From contig NC_057746.1 of the NCBI RefSeq assembly GCF_004010195.1, forward strand, positions 15,426,974 to 15,490,973: a stretch of 64,000 nucleotides of DNA, given 5' to 3'. This DNA comes from Chiloscyllium plagiosum. Taxonomy: Eukaryota. The notes below the pieces were generated by a model. That model did not search any database and was not told the origin of the DNA. It was given only the letters and a program-made list of their open reading frames with translations. Positions 9,674-63,939 of the stretch are shown piece after piece (position 1 is the stretch's first letter; each line of letters starts with the position of its first letter). The position numbers and the translations under genes are program-made.

Positions 9674-10542
9674 CTGTACTGGTTCACTGGTAGAGGGAAT
9701 GTATGAAAGAAATGCCACTCTGTTGAATGATCAGTACTGAGGAAGTGCCGAACTGTCAGGTAGTCGGGAGACACGTAGTTTTGCACTGCTCGTGAGTCAG
9801 CACTGAGACGGTACTGCATTTTCAGAATGGCAGGTGACAGAAAATGCTGCCCTGATATAAGGTCAGGACAATGTGAGGGCACTGTCATTACTCAGGAAGG
9901 GTCATTATTCAGGGAGTGCTGCACTGTCAGAGGGTGAATAATGAGGGAGTGTTGCACTGTCAGAGTGTCAGCACTGACAGAATGCTACACTGTAAGATGA
10001 TTAGTACTAATATTGTCAGATTGTCTCACTGTTAGAGGGAATACTGCACTGTCAAAAGGTTTATACTGAGCGAGCATTGCACGGTCAGCGGCTCAGTCAG
10101 AGGGACTGGGCTTTGTCAGCGTTTCCAAGAACCATTACAAAGGGAACACTGTCAGAGGGTCAGGACAGTGGGAATGCTGCACTGTCAGAATGATAATACT
10201 GAGTGAATATTGCACTTTCAGTAGTGATGCAGAACAAATAGAAAGTTTTCAAAGCGTGCAACACTGCAAGTGAATTAGTAGTGAGGTAGTTGCTTCTGTC
10301 AAACTGCCAGTAGTGAGCAAGAGGTTCATTATCATAGCTTAATTTTTGAGGGAGTCCCTATTTTCAGGACTATGTCAAAGAGTGTCTCATGGTCAGATTG
10401 TCAGTTCTGAGGGAGGGGCGTTTTGTCAGAGAGTTGAGAGATAGAGCTCATGACTGTCAGAGTGTCAGTATTGACAGAGTGCTGCACTGTCAAACGGTCA
10501 ATAATGAGGAAGTGCCACACTTCAGAGTGTCAGTAGAGACCG

Positions 10543-10588
<46 letters not shown>

Positions 10589-13500: not shown

Positions 13501-14812
13501 GAACACAGCAAAGCAGTAAGTCTGTTGTCAATTAATCCTGCTCAGGAATGCACTCCCCAGTGGAGGCAAGCATCCTCAAAATTTGTTCATCAAAATTCAC
13601 CGATGATGCAGAGTTAATATCCAATTTTCACACTCGATTGAAAAGCAAAAGTAAAAGTCCTTATTTGTTTTCTGCTGGAAATATCACAGGACATGTGTAG
13701 CCATTGCCAGCAGGAGGTTGCATTTAAAAAGAAATGGCACAGATTTTGCAGCAGTAAAACCCGTTGAAACAGAGTTGATAGACAATATTTAACGAGTTAG
13801 GACAGGGTTTTTGATAGTATATAAATTTTATAGCCATTAACAGACACCTTCATAGCTTTCAAAGCACAATTTATTTATTCACAATTTCAAAAGATAGCAT
13901 TTTTGTTTTCATCGGTGCTTTAACATCTACCTTTCTGTGCATCTATAATTTATCTGTTTTCCATCGATAACTTAATTTAACTTCAAAGCACCAGCATTTA
14001 TTTCACTTTCTGGTTTGCTGCTGATGAGAATACCTCAACGTAATTGGCTCTCCATTACACTTAATAAAAGCACACAATCAACTTGGTGAAAAAGTTTGCT
14101 AACTTGAAGTGGGGAGATGGGAAATCCATGCCGACAGTGGACCACCGCACTCTTCTGAATTACTTTCTTCAATGACAATCTTTGGTGGACCTCCATCAGG
14201 ACATGATATTCCTTTACATCTGGGGTGGCAAGATGGGTTTGTCGAACTTCTTTGGGGAATTAGCATCCAGGAAAGGTTCTTAATCTTGCTGACTTGTCAG
14301 GAGTCAGCTTGTTCTTACCCTGTTGGATGTGAAACAGTGGGGATCTTTGCTTCACATCTGCCTTTGACTGAATCTTTTTGGGAATGGATGGTTCCTATTT
14401 TTCTGAGGGAAGGAGAACAATGGCACACGAGTTAATGTTCAACCCTTCCCTCATTTGTCTGTATGTTCAGTGTTAACATGAGTTTGTAGAACTAAAAGAA
14501 TGAAAGTCTTCTTCACTCATGACCACTTATACTGTAATCATTAACTAATTAAACTATTAATGATTAACTAATTACAGCTAATTGGTCTAAGAGATTGATG
14601 AGAGAATTTCTAATTTAAGCCGAATCCTTCTGGCAAAGATATTGAAGTTTGCAAGAGCAGTTGGATTTGAATTCGTTTGCTGTTGGAAGATCCATAAGTG
14701 GCCAGATGACTTTTAACTTCAACATGTCTGAAGCCGAGCTCCTAATCAATATTTCTTTTCTTTTTCTTTTATCTGGGCCTCGTCAGTGTTACCTGTCCAT
14801 CAGGGTGAACTC

Positions 14813-16216
14813 ATGAAAAAACCGACAGAAACGAATGAATCTCTCAGTTACCAGACAACGTCATTTGACCCTGAAAGACGGAGTTCTTACGCAATGGGCG
14901 AAGTAATTTGCATTGCCACTGTGACAGGATCTCTAAGTGTGGTAACCATCGTTGAGAACGTTCTCGTCATTATTTCCATCAAAATAAACAGGCATTTGCA
15001 AACTATTAACAACTACTTCATTTTCAGCTTAGCCTGCGCTGATATTACTGTTGGTGTAACCATGAATCTATTCACCATTTACAGTCTCATTGGCGACTGG
15101 CCTCTGGGGCCAGTGGTGTGTGATTTATGGCTTACTATCGATTACGTTGTCACCAATGCCTCTTCCATGAATCTCCTTATCATTAGCTTTGACCGCTACT
15201 TCTGTGTGACCAAACCCCTTAGCTACCCCGTAAGGAGGACGCCAAAGGTTGCAGGGATGATGATCGCAGCTGCTTGGGTGCTGTCATTTCTCTTGTGGGC
15301 TCCTGCCATTCTCTTCTGGCAGTTTATCGTAGGGCAGAGAACAGTAAGTGAAGGAGAATGTTATATACAGTTCTTCTCCAATCCTGCTGTCACTTTCGGC
15401 ACTTCAATAGCTGCCTTCTATCTCCCAGTCACTATCATGGTGACTTTGTACATTTCAATATCACGTGCTAGCAAAAGTCGAATGAAGATGGATAAAAAGA
15501 ATTGGTCTCAATCGAATAAGGAACCAGTTTCTCCCAGTCTGGAGGTGGGTAAGAGACAGATATCGAGTCAGAGGAACATATCAAATGCTTCTGATGGGCT
15601 GCCATAAGTGAAAACGCAAAATGGTATAATAAGTCATGGAATCATAATTGATCATTTTGGTGAAAGAGTGGAAGCGGTCTGGAGTGAGTCAACTTCTTCC
15701 AGCACAATTTCATTAAACAGAAACGTGGAAGCGTCTGTCCATGAGAATGGAAATGCCTGCCCTCCGATGGATAACTGCAAACTCTCTTATTTAAAGATGG
15801 CTAATACGTCACAAAACAGTAACGACAATGGAACCACACCAGGAATTAATTGCAGACATTAGTAGCAATAACGAGAAAGACAGAGAGATTACGGAAAGAC
15901 AAAAAATCGATAAAACAATTTATAAGACTGTTCAGAAGAGGAATGTAACTGTAACCAAAGGAAGAAAGTGACAAGGACCATTCTGGCTATTCTCCTGGCA
16001 TTCATTGTCACTTGGAGTCCATTCTATGTTATGGTGCTCATTCGCACGTTCTGTTCCTTTTGTTTTCCAGGGAAAATTTGGGATATCGGATATTGAATAT
16101 TTTACATCAACAGCACTGTCAATCCAGCCTGCTTTGCACTCTGTAATGCTACTTTCAAGAAAACTTTCAAACACCTTCTCTTGTGCCAGTACAAGGACGT
16201 TGGTGCTAAAAACTAA
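14813..16216 (+). pseudogene. CHRM2: Muscarinic acetylcholine receptor M2-like pseudogene (single coding exon)
   Basis: [95 protein letters not shown]. Lesions: TAA 15605-07, frameshifts near 15842 and 15960, TGA 16094-96. Acceptor AG at 14785-86. A paralogue, not necessarily the true orthologue. Confidence 0.93.
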
Positions 16217-19200: not shown

Positions 19201-21091
19201 CACCCCAATAATCACAGCCAACTTACTTGAAGTAAGTACCGTTAACAGGATGGTTGTTTTACTCATGCAGAGAAATGCTAATAATATAGCTTGAATTCCT
19301 GGAGCTTACAATGAAGACTATTAAGACTCAAGTAATTGTTTTGGGTCTGGGTTCAAACGGAGGCCAGACCAGGTGAGGACAGCAGTCTCTTTTCTAAAGG
19401 AAAGCGAATGAACCAGATGTTTTTATTTCCAACAAATGACAACAGTTTCATGGTCACCATTAGATTTTTGATTTTTTTAATGTGATTGAATTCAAATTCA
19501 CCGTCTGCTATGGGAGGATTCAAACCCTGAGAACATTAATTTAATAAATGAATTCATCTTTTTTAAATTTGTATTTCTGTCATGATTTTTAAAATTAAAT
19601 TTTGAACAAGTCACTGCGTTATTTCTTGAAGTGTTTTAGCTCTTTCGTCCACTAAGATAGACATATATTATTGTATTGGTTCCTTGACTATTTCCTTGCA
19701 TGCCATTATAAATTTCCTGACTCTACTGAAATGGAACCACGTTGGTTTTTGCTAAACATTTCCATTATAAATATTTAGTGCAGAAGTTGCAGTACATTGT
19801 TACGTTTTTGCTTTTTTTTTCATTGTTTTACTCTGTTATTATTTGAGAAAATCACTGTTCATATACTCCTTAGGCAAACTTTGTTTGGTAACTTAGTATG
19901 ACACTTCTTTTGAACAGATACAATCCTCATTGGCAACAGTTAGAACACTTCCATTGTTGGGTTTCTGTTCATTGCGAAAATGTATTTTATTCTTAGTTAT
20001 GTATTAGTTCCTCAGATGTTAGACATTGTTCGTCGACAATTAGGTATTCTATTGCATTTTCCTCATCAACTATGGCCAATCTTCCCCTCTGATCTTCATA
20101 GCTTAATTTGTCTAGATTTAAGGCTGTGGTTTCTGATTTTACACTTAATATGACATTTCTCATGTTATGGTCACACTTTCTTAAATTATCATTTGCAACA
20201 AAATTATTAGCTGCCCATTTTATGTTGCATATATGATACAGTCTAAAATAGTCTTCTACCTAGATGACTTCCCAGTGGACAGCTCTAGAAAGATATTTCA
20301 AATACATTTGAAGGATAGCACAAATACACAAATAGCATTAGTATTAATTATGTTCAGCTGGTTCATATATCAATTGAAATCGTCCATAATTATTGTGTCT
20401 TCCTGTCAAAAGCCCCTCTAATTTCCAAAATACAATTTACTTTCTTGCTAATTTTTATACCCTTAAATTAACAGAGCTATCCCAACAAAATTTTCTAGCC
20501 TACCATCATTCCTTAATATCACTAAAACAGAGAGTCCAGTCTGAGCATTTTTGTTTTTGCCACCACTCTATTAGAACTACCATATTATGCTTATGAATTT
20601 ATATATAAGTTGATAATTCATGCCTGCATTGCAAATTCCTTAATTCAGTGTTGTTTTAACTGACTTTTCAGTTTTCATTTTTTGTATTTCCTGCTGTCCT
20701 CTGATCATTATTTTATTGTTACCTTGATTCATTACCGTTTCCTTTTCATTTAGCTTACTGAACAATGCACATATATGCTCCCTTGTCCCCCAAACATTTA
20801 AAAGTATTATATCCTACAATTTAAATTATTTACCCAGAACACAGAATCCAGCACTGTTTAGTAGAAGCCCAACACAGCAGTATAGCCCCATTTTTTCCAG
20901 TAATCATGTCAAGTCACCACAAAATAGAAATTCGCATTTGCAAAGCAGCCATTGAGCAGTTTGATGCTGATTTCTGTACCATGACAAGACTTGGAAAATG
21001 TTAACCTCCGATTAAACCCTAAAAATAGTCACAGGGAATATATAATCAGTAACTTCCAAGCATTTTTGTTTCACCATTCTGTCTCTTGCAG

Positions 21092-22054
21092 TGAATTTAG
21101 GGGCAATTGTCATCCTATATTCGAGGAAGTGTGGCCTCTCCACTTGCACCACGTCCTACCTATTGGCTGTGGCAACAGCAGATCTATTGGGCATCATCTC
21201 TTCTATCATATTGCATCAGCTCTTGTCTTATTACTTCCCAGTATCTTTTCTAGAGATCACTCCTGTGTGTAATATTATATTTATCCTTCTTTACGTAGGC
21301 ACTGAATGTTCTGTCTGGTTCGTTGTAATTTTCTCATTTGATCGATTTGTCGCCATTTGTTGCCAGAAGTTGAAAAGGAAGTCTTGCTCTGGCAAAACTG
21401 CAGTTGTAGTTCTATCAATCACATTCATTCTGATCTGTTTCAAAAATGTCCCAATTCTATTTCATACTTGAACCTCAAGAGATCATTGATGGTGCTCCTT
21501 GGTTTTGTAAGGAAAAGACAAGCTATTACACAAATCCTGCATGGGTGGCATTTGATTGGTTTGATAAGATTTTCATAACATTGATCCCATATGCTTTAAT
21601 TCTGATCATCAATGTCCTCACAATCAGACACATTTTTATGATGAGTTGTGTCCGCAAGTGACTCAGGCATCAGAGTACTGGAGGATACTACAGTGACACA
21701 GAGGTTGAGAGCAGAAGGAATTCTGCAGTTTTATTCTTCACAATATCAGACAGTTTCATTTTTCTTTGGCTTTTATTTGTTATATACTTCTGATGTTGTA
21801 CCTTTGCAGGAAATATTTCTGGAAATTACAATGATTCCTTAAACATCTTTGCAGACGTTGGTGTCATTTTGGCAGATTTAAATTGCTGCACATATGCATT
21901 TATTTATGTTGCCACTGAATCCAAGTTCAGGGAGCAGTTCAAGAGTGCTGTAAAATCTTCATGTGCATCAATGTTTCACTTTCTTAACAAGAGCTGGGAG
22001 CCCCATGTTTCCAGTAACATTCATCCTCCTATAACTACAAGGTTCCATAGGTAG
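21092..22054 (+). pseudogene. GPR139: GPR139/GPR142-like GPCR pseudogene, main exon
   Basis: Acceptor TCTCTTGCAG ending 21091; NLGAIVILYSRKCGLS, YLLAVATADLL, CSVWFVVIFSFDRFVAICCQKLK, FIYVATESKFREQF; frameshift ~21460, stops 21659-61 and 21791-93. Family-level call only. Confidence 0.85.
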
Positions 22055-23294: not shown

Positions 23295-23500
23295 GCCTTT
23301 CCTCCGGGTATTCCGGTTTCTTCCCACAGTCCAAAGATGTGCAGGTTAGGTGAATTGGCCATGTAAATTGCCTGTACTGTTAGGTGGATTAGTCACGGGT
23401 AAATATAGTGGGGTGAGTTTCTCTTCAGAGGGTCGGTGTGGACTTGTTGGGCGGAAGGGCCTGTTTCCACGCTGTAGGTAATCTAGGTAATCTAGGTAAT
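23295..23500 (+). mobile_element. 5'-truncated tRNA-derived SINE inside the LTR
   Basis: TCCCACAGTCCAAAGATGTGCAGGTTAGG core and (GGTAATCTA)n tail. Confidence 0.85.
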
Positions 23501-24529: not shown

Positions 24530-24837
24530 TTAGATTACTTACAGTGTCGAAAAAGGCCCTTCAGCCCAACAAGTCCACACCGCCGAAGCGTATACCACCC
24601 AGACCCATACTCCTACATTTACTTCTACACATAACACTACGGGCAATTTAGCATGGCCAATTCACCTAATCTGCACATTTTAGGATTGTGGGAGGAAACC
24701 GGAGCACCCGGAGGAAACCACGCAGACACGGGGAGAATGTGCAAACTCCACACAGTCAGTCGCCTCTGGCGGGAATTGAATCCGGGTCTCTTGGCGCTGT
24801 GAAGCTGCAATGCTAACCACTGTGCCACCTGCTGCCC
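24530..24837 (-). mobile_element. tRNA-derived SINE
   Basis: Reverse-strand copy of the 29719 SINE. Confidence 0.9.
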
Positions 24838-27137: not shown

Positions 27138-27767
27138 TTCCTGCCATTTATTGTTTCCATTGCTCCCGATGTGATCTCCTCTACATTGGGGAGACAGGAC
27201 GCCTGCTCACAGAGAGCTTCAGAGAACACCTTCGGGACACCCGGACCAATCGACCCCACCATCTCGTGGCTGAACACTTCAACTTCCCCTCCCACTCCAC
27301 TGAAGACATGCAGGTCCTGGGCCTCCTTCATCGTAACTCCCTAACGACCTGACGTCTGGAGGAAGAACACCTTATCTTGCACCTCATCTTCAACCCCATG
27401 GCATCAATATGGATTTCACCAGTTTCCTCATTTCCCCTCCCTCCACCTTACCCCAGTTCCAACCTTCCAGCTCTGCACCGCCCTCATGACCTGTCCATCT
27501 TCCACCTGTCTATCTTCCTTCCCACCTATCCACTCCACCCTACCCTCCAACCTATCACCATTATCCACATCTCCATCCATCTACCTTCCTCCTGGCCCCA
27601 CCCCCCTCCTATTTATCACTCCACCCCCGAGGCTCCCAGCCTGATTCCTGATGAAGGGCTTTTGCCCGAAACATCGATTTTCCCGCTCCTTTGATGCTGC
27701 CTGACATGCTGTGCTTTTCCAGTGCCACACTCTCGACTCTAATCTCTGCAGTCATCACTTTCACCTA
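27138..27767 (+). mobile_element. Penelope-like element 3' portion: GIY-YIG endonuclease remnant plus hammerhead pLTR
   Basis: IYCFHCSRCDLLYIGETGR from 27146; CTGATGA-AGGGC TTTT GCCC-GAAACATC at 27648-27675; imperfect TSD CTGGATTT(A/C)AT at 27127-37 and 27768-78. Confidence 0.85.
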
Positions 27768-29392: not shown

Positions 29393-29718
29393 GAGTATAC
29401 TTAAGAGGAAAATCAGGAGGGCAAAAAGGGGCATGAGATAGCTTTGGCAAATCAAGTTAAGGAGAATCCAAAGAGTTTTTACAAATATATTAAGGACAAC
29501 AGGGTAACTAGGGAGAGAAAGGGCCCCTCAAAGATCAGCAATGCAGCCTTGATGTGCAGCTGCAGGGGATGGGGGAGAGGCTAAACAAGTATTTTGCATC
29601 AATGTTTACTCTGGAAAAGGATAGGGAAGACGTAGAATGTAGGGAAATAGATGATGACTACATTACAGAGGAGGAAGTGCTGGAACTCTTGAAGTGGATA
29701 AATCCCCACGACCTGGTG

Positions 29719-30046
29719 GGCGGCACGGTGGCACAGTGGTTAGCACTGCTGCCTCACAGCGCCTGAGACCCGGGTTCAATTCCCGCCTCAGGCGACTGAC
29801 TGTGTGGAGTTTGCACGTTCTCCCCGTGTCTGCGTGGGTTTCCTCCGGGTGCTCCGGTTTCCTCCCACAGTCCAAAAGATGTGCAGGGTCAGATGAATTG
29901 GCCATGCTAAATTGCCCGTAGTGTTAGGTAAGGGGTAAATGTAGGGGTATGGGTGGGTTTCGCTTCGGCGGGTCAGTGTGGACTTGTTGGGCCGAAGGGC
30001 CTGTTTCCACACTGTAATGTAATGTAATGTAATCTAATCTAATCTA
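29719..30046 (+). mobile_element. Full-length tRNA-derived SINE (young)
   Basis: GGCGGCACGGTGGCACAGTGG A box, GGTTCAATTCC B box, CR1-like 3' end, (TGTAA)n(TCTAA)n tail. Confidence 0.93.
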
Positions 30047-31457: not shown

Positions 31458-31886
31458 CAAAAGTGATGACTGCAAATGCTGGAAACCAGAGTTTAGATTA
31501 GAGTAGTGCTAGGAAAACACAGCAGGTCAGGCAGCATCCGAGGAGCTGGAAAATTGATGTTTCAGGCAAAAGCCCATCATCAGGAATAGAGGCAGGGAGC
31601 ATCCAGGATGGAGAGATAAATGGGGGATGGGGGATGGGGAGGCTGGTGAGAAGGTAGCAAAGCATACAATAGGTGAATGGGGGTGGGGATGGAGGTGATA
31701 GGTCAGAGGGGACGGTGGAGCGGATAGATGGGAAGGGAGCTTGGCAGGTCGGACAGGTCATGAGGACAGTTCTGAGCTAGAAGGTTGGAACTGGGGTAAG
31801 GTTGGGGGAGGGGAAATGAGGAAATTGTTAAAGTTCACATTGATGCCCTGGGGTTGAAGTACACCGAGGCAGAAGATGAGGCGTTC
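31458..31886 (-). mobile_element. PLE 3' fragment with hammerhead motif and 15-bp TSD
   Basis: TSD ATATGAATAGGAAGG at 31443-57 and 31887-901; minus-strand CTGATGA-TGGGC TTTT GCCT-GAAACATC at 31556-31583. Confidence 0.87.
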
Positions 31887-33775: not shown

Positions 33776-34125
33776 GAGTGGTGTGGTCACTTAGTGGTTA
33801 GAACAGCTGCCTCATCATGCCAGGACCCAGGTTCAATTCCAGCCTCGGACGACTATCTGTGTGGATTTTGCATGTTCTCACCATGTCTGCATGGGTCTTC
33901 TCTAGGTGCGCCGGTTTGCTCCCACAATCCAAAGATGTGCAGGTTAGGTGAATTGCCCATGCTTAATTGCCCATAGTGTTCAGGGATGTGTGGGTTAGGT
34001 GCGTTAGTCAGGAGTAAATGTAGAGTACTTAGGTAGGGGACTGGGTCTGAATGGGATACTCTTCAGAAGGTTGGGGTGGGCTTGCTGTGCTGAAGAGTGT
34101 GTTTCCACACTATAGGGATTTTATG
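33776..34125 (+). mobile_element. tRNA-derived SINE, older copy
   Basis: B box GGTTCAATTCC and conserved SINE core. Confidence 0.85.
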
Positions 34126-35762
34126 AAACTTCATTTATTCTGTTATTTTCTGAGTTTAAATTAAGAAAGACTTTAATATTAACTATGACCTTATTTCTTT
34201 ATTTGTCTACTTATGTGATGAAGGTAATGTTTAACTTTTTAATGCTGCTTCTCTTACTATTTTGTTCCTAAATTTTTTGTGCCTAGCTACTTTAGTACCT
34301 AAGATGGTGCTGAGTGTGTGCATTTTCACTGTGCTCCTATACTTCTGTACATGAGTGCATGTGACAACAAAGTCTAAATCTAAACCGCTCACACTTTCCA
34401 TTAGTTTAAACAATGCTGCGACTCACATCCTCCCTTTTAAAAAATGCTCTCATCTGGAAATATCTGTAACAGGAAACGTGAACTGCATTCCAGACTTTCT
34501 TACGGGTTCTTTTGAGGAGATGCAACTGTTTGAGTGACTGCGCTCGAACGTCTTTGTTTCTGGGCTGTATTTGGCTGTGGGGCTGTCATTGTTTCAGGAG
34601 CCTTATCAGGTTCAAGTGGCGAAAAGACTTTTACTGGGATCTGAGAGCTTGCTGAAATATTGAGTTATCACCTTCAATGGAACATTGTTTAGAGATGAAT
34701 CAGAGCAGGCGACTCTCAAAGAGATGGTGTTACTGGGAGGAGTGGTCAAATTGTAGAATTGTGCTCAGTGTGAACGGGTAAACAGAGTGGAGCACCTGAA
34801 CCCACTGACTGTGCAGTTTTCAGACTAATTACATTGTGGAATTAGCTTAGGGGTGTAAGTGAAGGCCTGAATTGATTTTGAGACCTAAATACAAATTCCT
34901 TGCTTGAGTCATTTAACCAGACGGTCACAGTCACAGTCACAGGGAAGAGCCTTAAAAACAGGCTCCAGTGCAGCACCCTGTTCGGGCAATACAATTTGAA
35001 TATTAAATGGTATGCGAACATAGCAGAATGAATTGGCTACTGAAAGGAGAAGATATCTGGAGATGAGTCTGATCGTGTTTGAATGAACAACACCATTGCA
35101 TACATTTTCCAATTTTCGTTAATTAATCAAATCAAAGCTGCTCAGTCTTTAGGGATTTCTAATTTAATCTCAGCTCTAATTATATTCGATCACAACAGGG
35201 AATTAATGTTGCTACCATAATCTATTTGCACACATTTTAAAAGAAACTAAGTTGAGCGCTGGAGATTGAACAGGGGAAAAACTTAAAAGCGCTGTGAGTT
35301 CATGACCTCAGAGTTTAATTAGGAAGATTGCCTTCAGCGCAAAGGGACAGATGACTTCACACAGGAAAGAAGGGATATGTTTCCCTTCATCAGGACAACA
35401 TAATACATTATTCTTGCTGGCATTGATGCTCCAGGTAAGCAAGTAAGTCCATTGAAGTAGTGTAAACCTGTTTGAGAGCTAGTTATTAATCCATGGCTAA
35501 TTATATGAAAGCAAACCACTCTGCAGGCCGGCAATCCTTGACATTATTTTGTTAAGTGAAATGTCATGAACTGCCTTTGTAGTTTTCTTCCAGTGTTTCC
35601 ACTGAAGGTAAATCTGTTTGTAACTTGGAGTCTTGCTGAATTACAAAATAATTGTTTTTAGTGGGATACTGCGTACAGCTGAATCAGAGATTAGTATAAA
35701 AATTCTCAGAGGGAAGGTATTAGTCAGAGAATCTGTCATTGCTCAATCTGCAATGACAGCAG

Positions 35763-37020: not shown

Positions 37021-39036
37021 TGGCAGAAGGATCAAAACATAAATGAGTGAAATGTTCCAATCTGACTTTTGAGGGTTTCTGAAACGTACTACCTGAAAGG
37101 GGGCATTGGCAGCAAACATCATGGTATTTTCAATGTAGATTAGGGTGTGTGGGACACTTTGCCACCTGCAGAGATACAGACCAAGTGTTGGAAAGTGGGA
37201 TAAAGTTGTTTATTTTTTTTATCATAGAGATAGACACAAAGGCTTCTATTTGTGCTCTGATGTTCTCGGATTATATTATTCTCCCTGGCACGTGAACTCA
37301 GTGTTGGTTTCATTCAGAAACAGAAAGCATGTTTTGGAGTTGTTGTTCTTCACAATTGTCTCCCACAAAACGGTGTTATGTGAAGCAGTTAATATTTAAA
37401 TTGTGAAGTCTGTTGCTGTCATTGTTTGAGAGGTTTCTGTCAAATAGTCTGTGATGAGAAGCTTCAGAGAATACTGAAGGAGATCGTAAGACAAGTTCCA
37501 AATGTGAAACAGATGTGACTCAATGGATAATGCTCAGTTGTGATTCAATATGCAGTGGAGATTCTTAAGTGCAGAATTCAGGCTGACACTGCTACTACCA
37601 GTCCTGAGGGAGCACTGCACTGTCACTAGATAATACCGAGGGAGAGTTGCACTCTCTGAGGAACAGTATGGCAGATGTCTGATTGTAACAAGGTCAGCCA
37701 GCTGGAGCTCAGTTATTTGGTCCAATCAGGCTGACATGTAAAAATGGTTGACTATCAGAAATACGGATGCAATGGTACCCGACTCTGAATGAGGCAAAGC
37801 CATGGACTGTTCATGTGTAAACAAAGCTAGACTTGTTGATGAGATAACAGCCTCTGTGAAGTTATTTAGTGATGTCAAGAGTGGGATAACTCATAGAACA
37901 GTATCTGGAAGGATATCCAGGTGAGTTTGTACTCTTGAAAGTTCACCTATATCTGGTTTGGAACAAATAAATTGTTGAGTAATACCAAAATCAGAACCAA
38001 TCAAGATAAACATTTGTTAAACGATCATTCCATTTTAATGGAATTCGATACTGGCACAGCCATATCGGTGATCACAGAAACTGATTTTACCAAAATTCAC
38101 TCTGGACTCCAGCCCATAACTTTACATAAAACTTAAGCCTGGCTGAGAACATATACCAGGGAACATTTACAGATAAAGGATACAACTTCATTTCCAAACT
38201 CTTAAGAAAAATAGCTGATTCAGTTACCAGTGATTGTGATAAAGGCTTTAGCCCAAGTTTGATGAGACAAAATTGATTGAGAGAGATTCACCTAAATTGG
38301 CTTGACATTTTTCAATTGGAAAATGGCTTTCTGAGTGATGTGTTGATAAAATACCCAGAAGTCTTCCGGAAAGGTCTATCAGAGGAGCCTAGGCCACCTT
38401 ACATGTTGACTAGAAAACAATTCCATGATTATGTAAGGCCCTCCCAGTGCAATTTGCATTATGGGCAAAAGTAGAGGCATAAATCAGGAGGCCGAAAAGT
38501 GAAGGAATCTTCAAATCAACCCAACTCATGGAATGGACAGCGCCAGTCATGCCGATTTTGAAGCCTAATTTACTGGTCTTAGAAATGACCTAAGTTCGTG
38601 GATAGACATGGTTTGCCTTTGTGGAGATTTTAAACAAATGGCAAATAGGTTTTTGCTGCTAAATAAACACCCAAACCTTCAGATGGACGATTTATACACA
38701 AAGCTGACAGAGGGGATGCTCTCCTCCACAAAGCTGGACATCAGCCAGGCTTATTTGCAATTGCTTTCAGATCAGCATTCCAAGAAATATGCTGCAATTA
38801 ATACTCATAAGGGTTTGTACGAATAGACGAGACTACCATTTGCTGTATCATCAGCATGTTCAGGCGAACAATGGATAACATTTTGCCATTTACCAAAATG
38901 ATGCGCTAATAATAGGAAAATTTAATAATCAACACTCAGAGAACTTGAATGCAGTCTTAAGGCGCTTTTCCAAGGCAGCCGTACACCTAAGAAGGAAAAA
39001 AATGTGTGTTCCAGGTACCCCAAGTGACCTACTTGC

Positions 39037-39362
39037 AATGGTTAGCACTGCTGCCTCACAGTGTCAGGGACCCAGGTTCAATTCTAGCCTTGGGAAACTG
39101 TCTGGTGTAGTTCGTACATTCTCCCCATGTCACCATGGATTTGCTCCAGGTGCTCCGGTTTCCTCCCACATTCCAAAGATGTGAAGGTTAGGTAAATTGG
39201 CCATGCTAAATTGCCCATGGTGTTCTGTGATGTGTAGGTTAGGTGCAGGGGTAAATGTAGAGCAATAGGGTAGGGGAATGGTTTTGGGTGAGTTACTCTT
39301 CAGAGGGTCAGTGTGGACTTGTTGGGCTAAAGGGCCTGGTTCCACACTGTTGCAATTCTACG
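39037..39362 (+). mobile_element. tRNA-derived SINE inserted in the Gypsy RT
   Basis: GGTTAGCACTGCTGCCTCACAG head, B box and SINE core. Confidence 0.88.
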
Positions 39363-39862
39363 AAAATTAGGTTATTAAATCGACAAGACCTGGTTATACC
39401 TATTGGAAGATAGAATGAGGTCAATCAAAGGTGCCCCAGCACCCACGTCTGTCCAGGAGCTTGGGTCATTTTTTGGACTGGTAAATTATTACAGAAAGTT
39501 CATATATAGCCTGGTATCTATCCTTGCACCTTTGCCTCAACTCCAAAAAAAGGGCCAGCATTGGAGGTTGTCACAGAGACAAACCCTTGCTTTCAGTGAT
39601 TAAAGAAACAGCTATCATCCTCTAAAGTGTTGGCACCCTATGATCGCAAGCAAGATATAGTATTGATATGCAATGCCTCCCTGTGTAGCATCAGGGTAGT
39701 ATTATCTCATAGGTGATCCAATGGAGGGGAAACCCAATAGCATATGCATCCAAGACTTTGGCTAATGTGGAGTATAAATGCATCCAGATAGAAAATGAAG
39801 GACTAGTGGTCATATTTGGAGTCTGGAAGTTCCACTTTACATGTATGAACATTTGTATTAAT

Positions 39863-40075
39863 GCTGTGGTTCTGTTCGCTGAGCTGGAAGTTTTTGTTGC
39901 AAATGTTTCGTCCCCTGGCTAGGCGACATCATCAATGCTTGGGAGCCTCCTGCAGGAGGCTCCCAAGCACTGATGATGTCGCCTAGCCAGGGGACGAAAC
40001 GTTTGCAACAAAAACTTCCAGCTCAGCGAACAGAACCACAGCAACGAGCACCCGAGCTACAAATCTTCGCACAAA
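39863..40075. mobile_element. Palindromic PLE-type pLTR insertion with hammerhead motif and 12-bp TSD
   Basis: 91-bp inverted arms 39862-39952 and 39953-40043; TSD ATTTGTATTAAT at 39851-62 and 40076-87. Confidence 0.85.
39967..40006 (+). ncRNA. Minimal type I hammerhead ribozyme motif
   Basis: Stem I GCA/TGC, core CTGATGA, stem II GTC(G)CCT..AGG(G)GAC, GAAAC-GTT with palindromic AAACGTTT stem III region. Confidence 0.78.
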
Positions 40076-40509
40076 ATTTGTATTAATCACGGACCACAAA
40101 TCCCTACGTTGTCTGCATCTTAACTTCGGGCCACACTTAGCAGTGGGTTCTAATATGAAGTGCTTATAATTACAAGTTAGAACACTGTCCGGGAGACCAG
40201 GTAGTGAATGTGGATACATTGAGCCAACTCCCATTAAGACTTACGCGACCAGTGGTACCCTCAGTGGAAGAGTCTGTTATATTAAATTTTCTGAACACAC
40301 TCCCAGTCACAGGTAACAATATCAGACTTTGGATGTAGCTTCCAGTCCTTTTAAAACTGTAACAATTGGTTTTAATGGGGTAAACTAAAAGGTTATCACA
40401 GCTAGAATTCTCGCCTTTTGGACCCGTAGAGAACAAAATACATATTATTACAGGGAGCAAGAGTGATTGTCCCAAACAAAGGTCTCCACAAAATTCTGCC
40501 TGAATTCCA

Positions 40510-40614
40510 TGAGCAGGAGCCTGGAAGAACACGGCAAGTCAGGCAGCATCGGGAGATGGAGAAGTCGATGTTTTGGGTGTAATGCTGATTCAACGTCTAC
40601 AGCTTTTTTGGTCT
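40510..40614. mobile_element. Short rearranged PLE pLTR insertion in Gypsy pol with 10-bp TSD
   Basis: TSD CTGAATTCCA at 40500-09 and 40615-24; CTGGAAGAACACGGCAAGTCAGGCAGCATC resembles the reversed PLE tail. Confidence 0.7.
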
Positions 40615-43600
40615 CTGAATTCCACTAGCAGCATCCATGGGTCTCCAAAATGAAGATGCTGGTGACGAGCTACGTCTGCTGGCAGGCCTGAATGCAGACA
40701 TAGCTGCATGGGTAGAGCAGTGCCCAGAGTGCCAACAGGGACAAAAATTACCACCAGCAGCTCCCCCGCATCGTGAGAATGGCTGGGTAAATGTTGAACT
40801 CACATCGACAATGCAGGTCCTTTCATGGGTTAAATGTTCTTAGTCATTATATATGCTCACTTAAAGTGGTTGGACATGTGTAGAGTCCATTCGTCAAATA
40901 CGGGGATGACCATAGAAAGACTATGCACATCTGTTTCAACACACAGAGAAGTGAAAGGGTTGGTCTCAGATAACAGGGAATTTTGTTATTTCTTAAAGTC
41001 AAATGTGATCCAACATAGAAGGACAGCTTCATATTACCCATCATCCAATGGCCTGTCAGAAAGAGCAGTCCAAACTTTGAAGGATGTCTTGAGGAAACAG
41101 CCTACAACCTTGCTGGATACCAAGCTGTCATGATTCATGTTTGAATATAGGACCACCCCACATCCAACTACAGGGATTACACCAGCAGAGTTGCGAATGA
41201 AGAGAAGATTCTGTACCATGTTAAGCCTGATCTTTCTGGACCTGGGGGTGAGACTGAAACGGCATCAGGAACTCCAATGCTGGACCCAATACTCCACCAA
41301 TTAAGATGGACAGTTTGATACAGGGGATGAAGTTTGGGTAGGTGGGGATGGTTCTGAATAAACACGTGGAACATTTGAAAGCTGTGCATTTGCAAACGGT
41401 GCCCAAGCAAAACGTGCCCAGCTCCTCGAATCTATTAGAAATGTTGCAGGAATCCGTAGATTCACCCTCTTTGCTAAATGTTGTTGAGTCCTCTGAATCA
41501 GAGTTGGACTTGACGGATATAGCCACTTTGATGCCGGAAGAAGAGAGTGAAATTTTGCTGAGGTATTCCTGGCACAAGAAGCAAGTTTTCAGAACCCAAG
41601 TCAGAGGAACCTCGCCCAGTGCTCAATCACCTAGGGGGTTCTCTAAGAAAAAGGATTACCCTATGTCCTCAGACTCAGGGGGAGAGGGATGTAATGATTG
41701 CAACAAGGTCAACCAGATAGACCTCATAGAATGTGAGTTTCCTGATTGTTCCAGATTAGAAGCACCAATCAGCGAACCCCGGCTGACTTATAAATGGCTG
41801 ACTCTGAATGAGGCAGTACTAAAATCAAGAAATCTTCACTTGTAAATAAAGTGAGACTTGGTTACAGGATACTGGCCACTGTGGAGATTTCTTCAGCAGG
41901 GAACTGAACTTTGTAGTACTGAGGCAGTACTACACAATCCCTATGTCAGAATAGAGTAAGAGCTTGCATGTTGGGGGGTAGCAGCACTGAGAGAGTACTT
42001 CACAGTCAGAAGGGCAGTTCTGTGAGGTTTGCTGCACAATCCATGGGCTAGTATTGAGGGAGTCTTGTGTGATCAGAGGAGCAATATGTCGGAGGACAAC
42101 TGCACATTCAAAATGATGGTGCCGCCTCACTATTGAGAGGGTAGTACTGACAGAGTGCCGCATGGTTTGAATTTTATTTTGTTTATTGAAGGAATCATCA
42201 ATCTGAGCCTGCCCACGAGCTTACTTCCTCGTAAACTGGTGGAACAAAAATAACACGCAAGGAGAATAAAAAGTTAATGTTTCAAATGAATAAAGTTTTA
42301 TCAGAACTCTGTTTCTCCCTCAACAGACCCCCGCTGACCTCCTGTGGGTTTCCAACATTTCCTGGTTTGATTTCAGATTTCCAGAATCTGCGGTATCTTA
42401 CTTCAGTTTGAGAGAAGAGAAGTATCATGTCATAGATTCCCCTAAATGTAGAACGTATCCCCAGTGAACTGTCCTTTCAGTAAAATTACTTGGGAGATTG
42501 AAATGACAGGAAGATAATGACCATGAATCTGAGCTCAGTGATAGTACAGGCTTCAGTTTTAAATATGGAAGGTTGACTTCACAAGAGACCTTTATAGTTA
42601 AAGTCATCAGCATCAAGACCTTTAAAGGTCAAACACAGAAGCGGAGTGAAAATTAGTTCAGTAGCTGAACATTGAACTAACCTGAACTGGAAGAAACCAG
42701 CTTTGATTTGATCTCAGCTGGATACTATTGGAGATGACTAAGTAACTCATACATCAACAAAATCTTTAAAAATCTAGGAAGACTTCCCACTTGCTTAGCG
42801 GGACCAAATAAATTTCAGTTGGCACCAATTTACATATTCTTAGGTTGATGAAATCCAGTGCACCAATAAAAATGTCTTTTGGGCGTGCTGTCTTAGAGTG
42901 GCCGGAAGATGGGAGGATGGGTAGTTTGCTGGGTTGTGAGGAGGGTCCGTATTCTATGCACTTTTTAATGTAATTGGACTGTCTTATATGTATTTGTTAC
43001 AGTTTTATGATGATTGAAAGTGGGATTTGAGGTTTGTCCTCATTTCCTGAAAACTGGTTGAACAGTACAGTTTGGAACCTGGCGTTGCCACTCCCCTCCC
43101 TTGTAAAATTGATGTTTCTCTGTACATAACTGTTAATGTTAACTGTTTTGTAAACTGTTTATTGTTGAATAAAATTTTATTTTAAATGTCTTTCTTTCAC
43201 TGTGTCTCACACCTGCACACAGACAACACAGGTGCTGGGGAAAATAGAAACACAACTGCTGTTAGGTGGTAGTGTGGGGGAAAATAACAAAAATAGCCAG
43301 GAGATTTAGAATCTCCTCAGTTTAGGGCACTGACTCTGTGCTGGCTGGACCATGGTCAGTGTGTCTCAACTGCCCATCTCTGTTTTTTGGAGGAGAGGCT
43401 TTTTCTTTCCCCAACCGCCCCCTCCTTTTCCAGAGAAGATATTTGTTCCTTTTTGGTTTTCATTATTGTTCTGCATCCAGAAGTCAATATCATGAATAGT
43501 TGTGCTGACACTGATCACCATGGGTTGAACTCTAAAGCGACTGTGCACATTATTGTGCAGCTTAGAAGGAATGTTGATACAGAGCCAACCTCGCAAATTT

Positions 43601-48053: not shown

Positions 48054-51000
48054 ACATAGAGTCACAGAGATATACAGCACAGAAACAGGCCCTTCGGTCC
48101 AACTAGTTGATGCTGAAGAGATATCCCAACCTAATCTAGTCCCACTTGCCAGCACCTGGCCCATATTCCTCCAAACCCTTCCTATTCATATACCCATCCT
48201 GATGCCTTTTAGTGTTGCAATTGCCTCCACCACTTCCTCTGGCATTTCATTCCATACACGCACCACCCTCTCCATGAAAAGGTTGCCCCTTATGTCCCTT
48301 TTATACCTTTCCACAATCACCCTAAGCCCATGCCCTCTAGTTCTACACTCCCCAATCACGGGGATAGGACTTTGTCTATTTATTCTATCAATGCCTTTCA
48401 TGATTTTAAAAACCTCTATATGGTCACCCCTCAGCCTTCGATGCTGCAGGGAAAACAGTCCCAGCCTATTCAACCTCTCCCTATCACTCAAATCCTCTAA
48501 CCCTGCCAACATCTTGTAAATCCTTTCTGAACCCTTTCAAGTTTTACAACAACCTTCCGATAGGAAGCAGACCAGAATTGCATGTAATATTCCAAAAGTG
48601 ACCTAACCAACGTCATGTACAGCCTCAACATGACCTCCCAACTCGTGTATTCAATACTCTGACCAATAAAGGAAAAGACACCAAATACTTTCTTCACTAT
48701 CCTATCTATCTGCCACTCTAATTTCAAGGAATTATGTACCTGCACTCCGAGGTTTCTTTGTTCAGCAACACTCCCCAGGACCTTACAACAAATTGTATGA
48801 ATCGTGTTCTGATCTGCTTTTCCAAAGTGCAGCTCCTCGTATTTATCTAAATTAAACTCTACCTACCACTCCACAGCCCATTGGCCCATCTGATCAAGAT
48901 CCCATTGTTCTCTGAGGTAACCATCTTTGCTGTCCACAACACTTTCCATTTTGGTGTCACCTGGAAACTTACTAACTGTAACTCCTATGTTCACATCCAA
49001 ATCATTTATATAAATGACAAAAAGTAGTGAACCCAGCATCGATCTTTGTGACACTCCACTGATCATAGGCCTCCACTCTGAAAAACGATCCTCCACCACC
49101 ACCCTCTGTTTTCTACCTTTGAGCCAGTTCCACATCCAAATGGCTAGTTCTCCCTGTATTCCACAAGATCTAACCTCGGTAACCAATCTCCCGTGGGGAA
49201 CCTTGTTGAACACCTTACTGAAGTCCATATAACTCACATCTACCACTCTGCCTCATCAATCCTCTTTGTTACTTCTTCAAAAAACATCAAGTTTGTGAGA
49301 CATGATTTCCCACACACAAAGTCATGTTGACTATCCCAAATCAATCCTTGCCTTTCCAAATATGTGTAAATTTGTCCCTCACGATTCCCTTCAACAACTT
49401 GCCCATCATTGACATCAGGCTCACTGGTCTATAGTTCACTGGCTGGTTCTTACCAACTTTCTTAAATCGATGTACCACGTTAGCCTATCATCAATTTTCC
49501 AGCACCTCACCTGTGATGATCAATGATACAAATATCTCAGCAAGGGGGCCAGCAGTCATTTTCCCAGCTTCCCACAGAGTCCGAGGGTACACTTGATCAG
49601 GTCCTGGGGATTTATCCACTTTTATGTGTTTCAAGACATCTACCACTTCCTCCTCTGTAATATGGACATTTTTCAAGATGTTACCATCTATTTCCCTATA
49701 TTCTATATCTTCCATGTCCTTCTCCACAGTAAAGGCTGATGCAAAATACTTGGTTAGGATCTCCTGTGGCTCCACACAAAGGCCGCCTTGCTCATCTTTG
49801 AGGGGCCACATTCTCTCCCTAGTTATCCTTTTGTCCTTAATGTATCTGTAAAAACCCTTTGGATTCTCCTAAACTCCACTTGCCAAAGTTATCTAATGTC
49901 CCCTTTTTGCCCTCCTGATTTCTCTCTTAAGTATACTCCTACTGCCTTTATACTCTTCTAAGGATTCACTCGATCTATCCTGTCTATACCTGACATATGC
50001 TTCTTTCTTTTTCTTAACCAAACCTTCAATTTCTCTAGCCATCCAGCATTCCCTACACCTACCAGCCATTCCTTTCACCCTAACAGGAAAATGCTGTCTC
50101 TCGAATCTCATTAGGAGAAAGTGATGACTACAGATGCTGGAGATCAAAGCTGAAAAATGTGTTGCTGGAAAAGCACAGCAGGTCAGGCAGCATCCAAGGA
50201 GCAGGAGAATCGACGTTTCGGACGTAAGTCCTTCTTCATTCCTGAAGAAAGGCTTATGCCCGAAACGTCGATTCTCCTGCTCCCTGGATGCTGCCTGACC
50301 TGCTGCGCTTTTCCAGCAACACATTTTTCAGCTATCAACTCTCATTATCTCATTTCTGAAGGCTTCCCATTTTTGAGCCGTCTCTTTACCTGTGAACATC
50401 TGCCTCTAATCAGGTTTTGAAAGCTCTTTCCTAATACCACCAAAACTAGCCTTCCTCCAATTTATAACTTCAGCTTTTAGATCTGGTCTATCCTTTTCCA
50501 TCACTATTTTAAAACTAATAGAATTATGGTAGATAGCCCCAAAGTGTTCCCCCACCTCAGTCACCTGCACTGCCTTATTTCCCAAGAGTCGGTCAAGTTT
50601 TGCACCTTCTCTAGTAGGTACATCCACATACTGAATCGGAACATTGTCTTGTACACATTTAACAAATTCTTCTCCATCAAAACCCTTAACACTATGGCAG
50701 TCCCAGTCTGTGTTTGGAAAGTTAAAATCCCCAACCCCCATATCTGCCTTATTATTCTTACAGATAACTGAAATCTCCTCACAAATTTGTTTCTCAATTT
50801 CCCACTGACTGTTAGGGGGTCTATAAATATAATCTCCCCCAATAAGGTGATCATCCCTTTCTTATCTCTCAGTTCCACCTAAATAACTTCCCTGGATGTA
50901 TTTTCGAGAATATCCTGCCTCAGTACAGTTGTAACATGATCACTTATCAGAACGTCACTCCCCCTCCTCTCTTGCCTCCCATTCTATGCTTCCTGTAGCA

Positions 51001-56142: not shown

Positions 56143-56243
56143 CAAAAGAGAAATTGCTGGAAAATCGCAGCAGGTCTGGCAGCATCTGTAAGGAGAGAAA
56201 AGAGAGCTGACATTTCGAATCTAACGGACCCTTTGTCAAAGCT
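56143..56243 (-). mobile_element. Solo PLE pLTR with decayed hammerhead and 12-bp TSD
   Basis: TSD GGGATTTGAATG at 56131-42 and 56244-55; minus strand GCT-TTGACAA-AGGGTC CGTTA GATTC-GAAATGTC-AGC. Confidence 0.78.
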
Positions 56244-56452: not shown

Positions 56453-56546
56453 CTCCTGTACCTTGGATGCTGCCTGACCTGCTGCGCTTTTCCAGCAACA
56501 CATTATCAGCTCTGATCTCCAGCATCTGCAGTCCTCACTTTCTCCT
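56453..56546 (+). mobile_element. 94-bp PLE pLTR tail with 13-bp TSD
   Basis: TSD TAAAGTAAAGGTT at 56440-52 and 56547-59; matches 7561-7655. Confidence 0.85.
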
Positions 56547-60835: not shown

Positions 60836-63371
60836 GTAATGCGTTGGATTTTCTGAGCACTGGCAGTCTGCCACTCTGCCCCTCTTTGTTCAAAAGGTGG
60901 GAGATCTGCAATGCTGGCAGGAAATTCCAGTCAATGCTCCCTCAGAAATACAGAGCTGTGCTTCTCCATTCTCGTCCCTTGGTTATGCAGATCAGTCAAG
61001 GAACTGGGGAGAGGGGTGGTTTCATATTACATTCACTCCTGATGACAATCTACCTTCACATTCTGAACCGTGAAGATCAAGAACAACAGACAGCCCCTTT
61101 GAGGAGCTGCCGTGAAACAGTCAAATACCTCAGGTGTGTGTGAGGTTCAAGTGCCAAGACCATAGTGTGCCATTGGGTTAGAAGCCAGAGAGCCACATGG
61201 ATAGAGTGCCAACTGGATGGAAGAGAATTGACAGGTGCAAGGGTGGGGAAGATTGAACAGCGGAAGGCAGTGGGATGGAATTTGGGTTGGTTACAAGATG
61301 AGGATGATACTGGGGTTGACCAAAACAGAGAATGGATCCGAAGCAGGACAAAATGTTTCAGCTCACAAGCATTGAAGTGTCAGTTCTGAAAGCAGATGAA
61401 CGGTAGTAGGGAGGGGAATCCTGAGTGTAGTAGTGGGAAAGAGGGGTCATTTTTTAGTGGTGGGGGAGTGGAATTGTGTCCAAATCTGATCAAGGGGGGT
61501 CCAAAGGAGAGAAGGGGGTGTCAGGTCAGTTGCTGTAGGAGTGTAAGTGGTCTAGGATAGTTGCAGATTGGAGCTCTGGAAGCAATTATAGAGTCAACTG
61601 AATCGTTACTCAGATGCTCAAAAAATGTATTTAACAGAGAAGCTTTTCCTGATAATCATTTGCTTAATTTTGATCAGAACCCTGACTTCTTTGTAAGCTT
61701 ATTTTGCACTCAAATAAGTGTTGTCAGCCCAGAGATGCCCTATATGGTGGCTGACATTTACCCCTGACATGGCAGCAAGGTGTAAATTTGGGGCTTGTTT
61801 TTTGTGAGCAGGCACCTGGAGGTTCTGAGGAACAGGACAATGCAGAGGAGGGCCATCCTCTTCGCCCAAGCCCCGCAATAGAGGCTGTGGCACTGTAATC
61901 TACCAGCCTGGTCAAGGTTTCCACCCAGGCCAGTTTGTCATGAGTCATCTGGAGTGTGGGAAGAAAGTCAATGTCCTTCTCCTCTCTGTTAAGGTGACAG
62001 CTCTTTCTTTCCTATCTCACATTCACTCCATCACTGCTATTGCTCACAGCTCCCACCAAGGCTGAAGTTCTACCATTCTTACTATTGCAAGCAAGATATG
62101 TCCGCGTTTGTCCTCATCCACCTCAATATCCAATATCACTAACCCTGCATGCCCAATACGCCAGCCTATTTACTCACTTGGGGCAGCTTGCCTATTTCCT
62201 CCAGCCTGTTCCATCAACAATATTTGTGCAGCCATTTTCATCTCACTCAATCACCATTCTCAGCAGACAGGAGAAAATAGCCCACAAGAGAACAGAAAAA
62301 ACCCGGATCGGTGGTGGCTGCCAGAGATTCGACTGCTCACTCCCAATCAAGATAGAATCCTGACCAAGTGGTTGACTGAACATGTCCAAGCTCCTGGACT
62401 GGTATCAAAAGCTGCTGTTGACTTATTATGCTGGAAGGCTCCTGATTGAAGGTCATCTCCCATGCTGTATCTGTGCCATGCGGAAAACCAGCTTCCTGCC
62501 TTTGTATCTGCACTGAACAGCAAGGCAAGATAGAACTACTGTGCCTGACAGCTTTGCCTGAGGGGGCAAACTTCAAAAAGCCAAGGCAAGGCAGTGATGC
62601 TTTTGAGAATCAAGGTGCGTTCAAAGCAAGTAAGCAAGATGAGAGTGAGAGAACAGCCTTGAGGTGCAACCTGGTCCAGTCCGTGATCAGAGTGCTTGTC
62701 TGTGTGAGGCTGCCTGCCCCTCTGCAGAAACTGTCCTTGCAGTAGCATTTCAATGCTAATTGCCTGTGAATCCCAGCCCCTGAGTTTCAGCATTGAAGTT
62801 CAGAGATGTGCCATCAGAATACAGAGAATCTGGCAAGCTGTTGGGTGCAAATGTCCATAGACAAAGTTGTTTATGTGGCTAGTGCCCTGGAGGACATTCT
62901 GCAATATCATTGCAAGGTGTTCAAGATGATAGCCCACGGCACCATGCAGAGAGCAGGAATCTCCAGTTTACCACTGTGATACTGGTGTCTGGAATTGTCA
63001 AATTTGAGTTTCCTCGTGGCAAGTGGTAGGTTAGGAAACAGAATAGCAATGAGGCAATATTCAGTGTTAGTTAGGCTGTTAACAGGCAATAATTCCCATT
63101 CATAGGCCGCTCACAAACATGAAGGTCATCTTGATGCCTGGAACTCAGAAAAAGCAGATGTCGTGATAGGTCTGGCTGGATTTCACATGTGCCTCTCCCA
63201 AATTTCTCACCATAGTCCACATCATTCATGCCCCTCTAAGATTCCACCTAAGAGCTAGTGCCAAGATAGCAAGGAGGCCTCACAGCAACAAGCCGTGCCC
63301 AGCGCTTAAAAGTGTGCTCAGTCCCATGGGGTCAGCACATCCCATTTCTTGGACACAAGAGTGGGCATGGA

Positions 63372-63422
63372 TTAAAGTGATGCTGGAAAAGCACAGCAAG
63401 TCAGTCAGCATCCAAGGAGCAA
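63372..63422 (-). mobile_element. Short PLE tail fragment
   Basis: GCTGGAAAAGCACAGCAAGTCAGTCAGCATCCAAGGAGCA matches 50164-50203. Confidence 0.7.
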
Positions 63423-63939
63423 GCATGTCTTTTGGAGGCAGACTCATCCATGTGTTGGAGAGCCAAGGTGCACATATTATCATTGAAAGGTTGGCCTAAA
63501 GGGTATAAAGTGTCTGGTCAATGAATAGAAGGGAGTAGAAGGCATATGGAATACACAAGTCTATGGAAGCAGGGCTGAGGTGATGGAGGATTCATTCGAG
63601 ATGAGTTGGCATGAATGGGGCATGAGGTGTATGTAAGAGTGAGAAGAAGTGAAAAGGTTTTGAGTTGTGAAAGCTAGAGGAACACTTCATTATTTATTAG
63701 GACACAATGCTAGATGCCTGAGATTGTTTTCTTGCCCAGCCCACCTCAGAAACCAGCAGAACCATGATTCCCAATCGAGCTCGCTTCCCAAGATCAAAAA
63801 TGGGAAACACAGGTCATAATTTTTTGAATTTGAGTTTGTCAAAGTTGGGTATTCTCCCACCTCTGTGCCCTGACCCCAAGTCGGTCGAGGTGACTTTCAG
63901 AAAATGTACCAGAGTACAGCCCAGTCACAGAACCACAAG

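Follow-up and report, generated by a model that had tools for sequence, protein, structure and literature searches.

PLE insertions typically carry an inverted 5'-truncated copy of the element and a 30-40-bp tail on one side only (PMC8557442; PMC8969392). PLE copies in Adineta were described as having an inverted pLTR shorter than the direct one, together with a tail of 31 bp and TSDs of 8-10 bp, and the PLE junction was proposed to arise by self-priming (PMC3846280). The origin of PLE inverted ends is stated as unresolved in PMC8557442. For the Poseidon type, the ORF starts at hammerhead stem II. The protein of Poseidon from Anolis carolinensis (PAc) nicks and extends both strands with a preference for ATT, reverse transcription starts at two sites with the tail being the span between them, uncleaved RNA is the main substrate, and insertion in vitro needed the first 172 nt of the ORF (PMC11167929). 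The minimal hammerheads of metazoan PLEs have a bulge between positions 9 and 10.1, a G10.1-C11.1 pair, a long helix II and a palindromic 15.2/16.2, and in Schistosoma dual minimal hammerheads were described on opposite strands about 100-700 bp apart (PMC4209133). Short pLTR units can move, as pLTRs alone mobilised host DNA in trans in Adineta (PMC3846280) and animal retrozymes are described as non-autonomous PLE derivatives (bioRxiv 10.64898/2026.07.22.740005). The literature searched yielded neither work on PLE hammerheads of sharks nor a description of a non-autonomous unit that is palindromic; the family may be described in Repbase.

Here we analyzed a palindrome in a 64-kb window of a shark genome (the whole stretch of DNA studied). 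The first-pass annotation had described a near-perfect palindrome, and this was borne out. A repeat finder and a script agreed on two arms of 91 nt each (39862-39952 and 39953-40043) that abut with no spacer and are complementary at 89/91 positions, compared to 10-14 for the best zero-spacer arm match with up to 2 mismatches in 5 base-shuffled windows. The mismatches are at 39935/39970 (core C3) and 39904/40001 (position 16.2), and in both cases it is the core of the minus-strand copy that is off-consensus. Both differences are transitions, one of them at a CpG, and the age of the insert is ~1.1% per arm. The insert proper spans 39863-40075. Its two parts are the 3' end of the pLTR, 123 nt long including the tail, and a tail-less copy of 90-91 nt that is inverted head to head against it. 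The inverted 5' copy of the truncated pLTR lies on the minus strand at 39863-39952, reaching 91 nt when T39862, which doubles as the last base of the TSD and the last base of the arm, is included. The direct 5'-truncated pLTR arm lies on the plus strand at 39953-40043 and extends past the repeat by a 32-nt PLE tail (40044-40075) found on this arm only, with the same 3' end as an older relic at ~1014-1112. The first-pass annotation had also noted the 12-bp TSD and the 32 nt of extra tail on the plus arm. The TSD is exact (39851-39862 = 40076-40087) and AT-rich, starts with ATT on either strand, and has a score that was reached by 1/148 random boundary pairs in a scan using the same rule. No tandem repeats were found at the insert locus, the arms being inverted, and the two TSD edges do not bear symmetric terminal inverted repeats as the 32-nt tail lies outside the repeat.

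MITEs and foldback DNA transposons are short, palindromic and TSD-bounded. A long inverted repeat with a TSD would suit such an element, and five sub-threshold matches to Rfam microRNA families (E<0.001) would suit a conserved microRNA or hairpin RNA gene. Either identity is extremely unlikely given that the right end is not a terminal repeat, that the arm encodes the ends of PLE ORFs, as described below, and that the microRNA scores of 32-36 bits compare to gathering scores of 51-95 and reflect the hairpin alone. The Rfam microRNA and snoRNA rows were rejected as hairpin or box noise below the gathering score.

The insert lies in a decayed Gypsy-type pol on the plus strand (39600-41130, limits approximate). 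Domain scanning of 40 window pieces, 8 of which had any match, gave RT_RNaseH-like matches in the upstream flank, with E-values from 5e-5 to 5e-4, while the downstream flank matched an integrase core weakly (E 0.001); all were below the curated cut-off. The earlier proposal of one insertion event with a TSD into a Gypsy relic was borne out. It had also been proposed that removal of the insert restores the RNase H motif FVLITDHK. The insert does split this stretch, but the host frame is broken by many further stops and frameshifts elsewhere. In other parts of the window, two rhodopsin-family GPCR frames at 14732-15607 and 21046-21471 (+) matched 7tm_1 (E 1e-45 and 5e-10) and were the only host-gene-like matches among the 40 scanned pieces. 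A dispersed repeat family, which we take to resemble a tRNA-derived shark SINE, was present at 23298-23485 and 24531-24717 (an inverted pair ~1 kb apart), 8989-9248, 29716-30028, 33793-34139 and 39036-39376.

As PLE inverted structures trouble assemblies (PMC8557442) and the window is a gapped scaffold, we considered an artefact of assembly or amplification in the form of a fold-back chimera. This is hardly credible for an insert whose arms differ at two positions, both by transitions and one at a CpG, whose exact TSD closes both ends, and over which the flanking Gypsy reading continues.

Guided by the Poseidon ORF start at stem II (PMC11167929), the ORF search began from the ATGs in the hammerhead core, and translation from these gave a frame that was open through to the end of the element. 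A 40-codon frame of the plus arm was identical at 34/40 residues to residues 12-51 of P0003 (one protein of two candidates), a 656-aa protein from Chiloscyllium punctatum with an RVT_1 match (E 3.9e-11) and a DKG motif recognized by eye. The match to this protein makes a carpet shark the probable host. Met19 of P0003 aligned with the ATG at 39976, so that codons 1-33 of the parent RT-endonuclease ORF occupy 39976-40074 (+) and the start is at the foot of stem II, as in the Anolis Poseidon layout. P0003 ends before the nuclease and the evidence for EN comes from its relatives. There were 601 of these at E<=1e-10, and the best 120 of the 601 were taken (P0003-P0122), including further shark copies. 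One relative, P0015, is 88% identical to P0003 over 37% of P0003, and its C-terminus matched the peptide from a second frame of the plus arm (8/10 residues by eye), so that the parent ORF finishes at 39954-39986 (+), its stop codon being within stem II. A GIY-YIG-type segment with two inner cysteines was recognized by eye in P0015, P0004, P0005 and P0120, and the extra Zn-finger linker between RT and nuclease was absent by eye from the same four proteins. Pfam GIY-YIG was matched weakly in 3/8 relatives scanned (E 2e-4 to 0.024, all below cut-off), and P0015 was not one of them. The GIY-YIG-type segment, inner cysteines and missing linker of P0015 point to placement of the parent family in the Penelope/Poseidon clade. 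Because one frame of the plus arm matches the N-terminal part of P0003 and another the C-terminus of P0015, we read this arm as the pLTR of a Penelope/Poseidon retrotransposon, with one ORF terminating within stem II and the following one starting there. As in EN+ PLEs, this pLTR overlaps an ORF end and an ORF start and bears a minimal hammerhead. The PLE pLTR origin suggested in the first-pass annotation was confirmed by these protein matches; its description of the insert as non-coding was not, as the plus arm carries coding sequence from both ends of the parent ORF.

No ORF body of this family was found in the 64-kb window. When 5 parent-family proteins were compared to the window by tblastn, both arms were recovered, and so was a GIY-YIG relic at 27143-27298 that belongs to another family; three further rows were weak and were set aside. 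A PDB sequence search with P0003 was uninformative, giving 6 weak rows, one of them a group II intron maturase (E 0.31). The sole phmmer match of a 34-aa peptide among 1.84 billion representatives, P0002, was rejected because its score sums weak 8/20 matches of a 68-aa repeat. The tandem units of 68 aa that make up this 1112-aa record bear a weak likeness to the stem II peptide, and the record could represent the translation of a 204-nt satellite that is possibly like a retrozyme. Among the best 120 of 601 relatives of the shark PLE protein, the best non-shark proteins were from the parasitic flatworms Dicrocoelium (50% over 94%), Spirometra and Schistosoma, together with unnamed records, an affinity that might reflect horizontal transfer or database bias.

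The palindrome centre was then compared to the parent. The sequences of P0003 and P0015 extend beyond the centre on its 5' side and jointly fix the parental bases there, and at six consecutive positions immediately 5' of the centre the parent, deduced from these two other copies that are perhaps from other species, differs from the insert. On this evidence the parent is not palindromic here, and the centre (39952-39953, 17 nt 5' of core C3) is a truncation/inversion junction. The deduced parent does hold a 10-bp palindrome with its centre 6 nt 5' of the junction, which the insert did not use. Several differences from both P0003 and P0015 are common to the two arms, which derive from one template or one young subfamily, and both arms span H17, indicating that the template RNA was uncut. 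No second copy with the insert's centre was found in the 64-kb window. Two peptide queries, which are weak evidence, returned no further carriers of the junction; one of them, the 64-codon frame across the centre, gave no candidate among proteins of 35-112 aa and speaks neither for nor against a recurring junction. From the one copy in the window we infer a one-off insert.

The plus copy of the hammerhead (39967-40006) has a stem I of 3 bp, the core at 39970-39976, a bulged U at 39977, stem II at 39978-39995, GAAA at 39996-39999, a loop-less helix III and H17 at U40003 with a GUU site. It contains all elements of a minimal type I motif, namely C3-A9, G12-A14, A15.1-U16.1, H17, stems I and II and a palindromic 15.2/16.2. 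A strict descriptor, which required an exact core, a minimum of 3 bp in each of stems I and II and complementarity of 15.2 and 16.2, gave 1 match in the window compared to 2 in 200 shuffled windows, and a relaxed scan put the strict match at 39970 (+), in agreement with the intact minimal hammerhead of the first-pass annotation. The Rfam model search that had been recommended as a check returned no hammerhead family at the gathering score in the window and none at E<=10 on the insert or the plus arm alone, and the hammerhead call rests on the descriptor and published min-HHR features. The damaged minus copy (39899-39938, minus strand) carries C3U and a 16.2 G>A change that removes the 15.2-16.2 pair and disrupts the self-complementarity of helix III. 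As the minus arm reads His compared to Arg in P0003, it is this arm that holds the derived state at 16.2. The chance of both mismatches falling in one arm's core is ~0.009 unweighted and 0.025 with a tenfold CpG weight, a post hoc estimate, and is left without explanation if the palindrome formed as a PLE insertion. Natural U3 variants are slower and presumably still active (PMC7151607), and C3U is therefore not enough by itself to show that the minus copy is inactive.

RNA folding was used to assess cleavage. In read-through RNA the hammerhead-compatible ensemble (stems I and II) was predicted to be less stable than the hairpin by 70.5 kcal/mol on the plus strand and by 70.0 kcal/mol on the minus strand; the cost was 62.7 kcal/mol in nascent RNA ending just beyond the cut. 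On either strand, read-through synthesizes the antisense arm first. In single arms the cost of the hammerhead-compatible ensemble was 3.0 and 2.6 kcal/mol and fold stability was ordinary (z -0.06 to -1.82). The helix III self-duplex of the minus copy was -0.5 kcal/mol compared to -7.7 kcal/mol for the intact version; the latter is an 8-bp duplex that pairs A13 and A14 too because the site is GUU, and this pairing may itself impede catalysis. GUU may cleave more slowly than GUC; no source ranking the two rates was found in the literature searched, and GUU is among the usable cleavage sites (PMC3138052). Published min-HHRs show no activity as monomers and only weak activity as dimers (PMC4209133), and the PAc ribozyme needs the element's protein (PMC11167929). 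No dimer can form in cis between the two motifs of the insert, one of which lies on each strand. Folding would be possible only in a transcript initiating near the centre, and even then a second molecule would be required for helix III. Self-cleavage from either strand, as the first-pass annotation had proposed, is unlikely in this model since RNA crossing the centre folds as a 91-bp hairpin that takes up the sense hammerhead and the minus copy is without a dimer helix. If transcribed, the locus would likelier yield dsRNA, a 91-bp hairpin that could be a substrate for editing or Dicer, than an active ribozyme, given that inverted repeats of Penelope are a source to which siRNAs map in Drosophila (PMC3681739). 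A scan for sigma-70 promoters and terminators, a method ill-suited to an animal genome, found none. The insert is most likely without activity today.

The palindrome could alternatively be a non-autonomous unit whose own transcript, once processed by the hammerhead, is inserted again by a PLE protein acting in trans. A clean TSD round the whole insert, its young age and the disabling of one ribozyme by both mismatches (p about 0.01-0.025) fit such a unit, and both pLTR-only mobilisation (PMC3846280) and PLE-derived retrozymes (bioRxiv 10.64898/2026.07.22.740005) have been published. We consider it very unlikely because the parent is not palindromic, the ends are asymmetric as in ordinary PLE insertions, no second copy with the same centre was found in the 64 kb, and the hairpin opposes the ribozyme fold by ~70 kcal/mol. 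In addition, the insert falls short of the 172 nt of ORF required by PAc (PMC11167929), and retrozymes are head-to-tail tandem arrays (bioRxiv 10.64898/2026.07.22.740005). The MITE-like unit of the first-pass annotation was not sustained for the first three of these reasons. Similarly improbable is a self-standing PLE derivative, transcribed from its centre or by read-through and re-inserted whole by the Poseidon protein, that would have inherited one working and one silenced hammerhead and would recur at many loci with the same centre and the same two changes in the inverted arm. Recurrence of the centre, the check put forward in the first-pass annotation, would not by itself demonstrate that the palindrome spreads as a unit, as junctions can recur at native hairpins, an example of which is a second palindrome in the window.

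This second palindrome (50114-50332) belongs to another PLE family, lies inside a LINE relic and has a 35-nt tail on its long arm only. Its TSD is weak, with 8 exact bases, a score matched by 12/148 random pairs, or alternatively 13-16 bp with 2-3 mismatches. Its junction falls on a hairpin that is also present in an un-inverted copy at 7515-7540 (9-bp stem, -5.6 kcal/mol as DNA); two other copies are without that hairpin. Its arms differ at 6 positions, 4 of them within 13 nt of stem II and including a compensatory pair (p 0.0035, post hoc). This is a hint that two different RNA templates may have been used in one insertion, though a local template-switch mutation could also produce the stem II differences.

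The TSD scan covered 12 rows, comprising 11 PLE-like loci and one non-PLE palindrome, and 2/11 PLE-like loci have an adjacent inverted copy. The PLE profiles used were built from copies found by blast and by eye, and only 42334-42394 was new, making this a list and not an independent test. Strong TSDs were found at 5 PLE loci (12, 15, 17 with 2 mismatches, 12 and 13 bp) and none at five. Besides the insert, the strong TSDs bound pLTR pieces without an inverted copy at 31458-31886 (minus strand, 15 bp), 40517-40614 (minus strand, 17 bp with 2 mismatches, in the same Gypsy relic as the insert), 56143-56243 (minus strand, 12 bp) and 56453-56546 (plus strand, 13 bp). The piece at 40517-40614 includes ~25 nt (40590-40614) without assignment. 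PLE 3' ends without a clear TSD were found at 7222-7655, 27143-27766, of which 27143-27298 encodes the GIY-YIG relic noted above, 63370-63439 and 42334-42394. The relic at ~1014-1112 is related to the family of the insert (74% over 66 nt); the 3' half of its hammerhead is decayed and it adjoins a 196-bp direct duplication (821-1016 and 1299-1494). A palindrome at 3840-3913 is imperfect (74 nt, 78%), lies at the edge of decayed 32-33-bp repeats at ~4000-11700, gave no match to the PLE profiles and was kept outside the PLE census.

We also considered a simple truncated PLE insertion to which the inverted arm was added later by a template switch in replication or repair. The zero-spacer centre and near-identical arms suit a DNA-level fold-back of this type. 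It is nonetheless very unlikely, since the inverted arm abuts the intact TSD while ending 32 nt short of its partner (35 nt short in the second palindrome), an inverted copy recurs at 2/11 PLE-like loci in the window, and such a copy is a published hallmark of PLE insertion (PMC8557442, PMC3846280).

The reading we prefer, and hold to be highly probable, is a dead-on-arrival, extremely 5'-truncated insertion of the Penelope/Poseidon clade in which the palindrome formed during integration. PLE origin, a junction foreign to the parent, the one-sided tail, the TSD and an uncleaved RNA template can all be read from the sequence, and the 5' truncation, inverted 5' copy, one-sided tail in the 30-40-nt range and TSD of variable length seen here are those of EN+ PLEs. 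In the proposed series of events, by analogy with Anolis Poseidon, a GIY-YIG nuclease would nick both strands of the AT-rich site 12 nt apart. Reverse transcription would start at two internal sites 32 nt apart, giving one tailed and one tail-less end, synthesis would halt 17 nt beyond the hammerhead core, and the products would be joined head to head with no further mobility after insertion. Taken jointly, the staggered nicks, two internal starts, early stop, head-to-head join and loss of mobility are very probable. The tail asymmetry and the second palindrome favour two cDNAs, and the zero-spacer centre favours fold-back or end-to-end joining, as two cDNAs truncated independently of each other would not be expected to give a junction without spacer. 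The pLTR-only mobilisation in Adineta and the PLE-derived retrozymes would count against the loss of mobility; the 172 nt of ORF needed by PAc compared to the 100 nt in the insert would count for it.

Together these data suggest that the insert is the product of an EN+ PLE of Poseidon type and an ordinary dead insertion. A single locus of this kind is the expected footprint of a PLE, and its value is as a probe of the inversion step. Three features could be counted genome-wide, namely two ends one tail length apart, as two reverse transcription starts predict, and, as in the second palindrome, a join on a pre-existing hairpin and covarying stem II arms. One shark genome should hold enough palindromes to decide between fold-back and two-template priming. 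The locus is also a caution for ribozyme screens, since hammerheads found back to back in an animal genome will usually be remnants of PLEs. A mobile unit, if true, would be a palindromic single-unit counterpart to retrozymes.

When compared to known systems, the insert is unlike MITEs and foldback transposons in that it is without a symmetric terminal repeat, its arms are made of retroelement ORF and pLTR, and its TSD is of the variable-length kind. It resembles the non-LTR retrozymes in being short and pLTR-derived with a type I hammerhead and no full ORF, but these are described as head-to-tail tandems with at least 2 motifs on one strand (bioRxiv 10.64898/2026.07.22.740005), whereas the insert has a single head-to-head pair. 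Its plus copy shares with the metazoan PLE minimal hammerheads of PMC4209133 the 9/10.1 bulge, G10.1-C11.1, a long helix II, the palindromic 15.2/16.2 and the absence of loop 3, and differs from those motifs in a helix I of just 3 bp and the GUU site. The U3 of the minus copy is not accompanied by the A8 covariation reported there, and the core spacing is ~35 nt compared to about 100-700 bp for the Schistosoma dual motifs (PMC4209133). As in Adineta Pen2/Pen2a (PMC3846280) and the scheme of PMC8557442, the insert has a shorter head-to-head inverted 5' copy, a one-sided tail of 31-32 nt and an enclosing TSD. Unlike both, it is without an ORF body or second direct pLTR and its junction lies off any native palindrome centre, and the TSD is 12 bp compared to 8-10 bp in Pen2/Pen2a. 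Compared to PAc (PMC11167929), the insert consists of terminal fragments only, holds 100 nt of the ORF rather than the 172 nt that PAc needed, and comes from another family and host. Counted from the ATG, the cut falls after nt 28 compared to 26 in PAc and the long end is at nt 100 compared to 111-118 in PAc; the short end is at nt 68, and the region is 74% A+C. The insert and PAc (PMC11167929) are alike, in layout only, in the ORF start at stem II, a cut site ~26-28 nt downstream of it, the AC-rich region of the reverse transcription starts ~100-118 nt into the ORF, the tail between two ends and the AT-rich ATT target.
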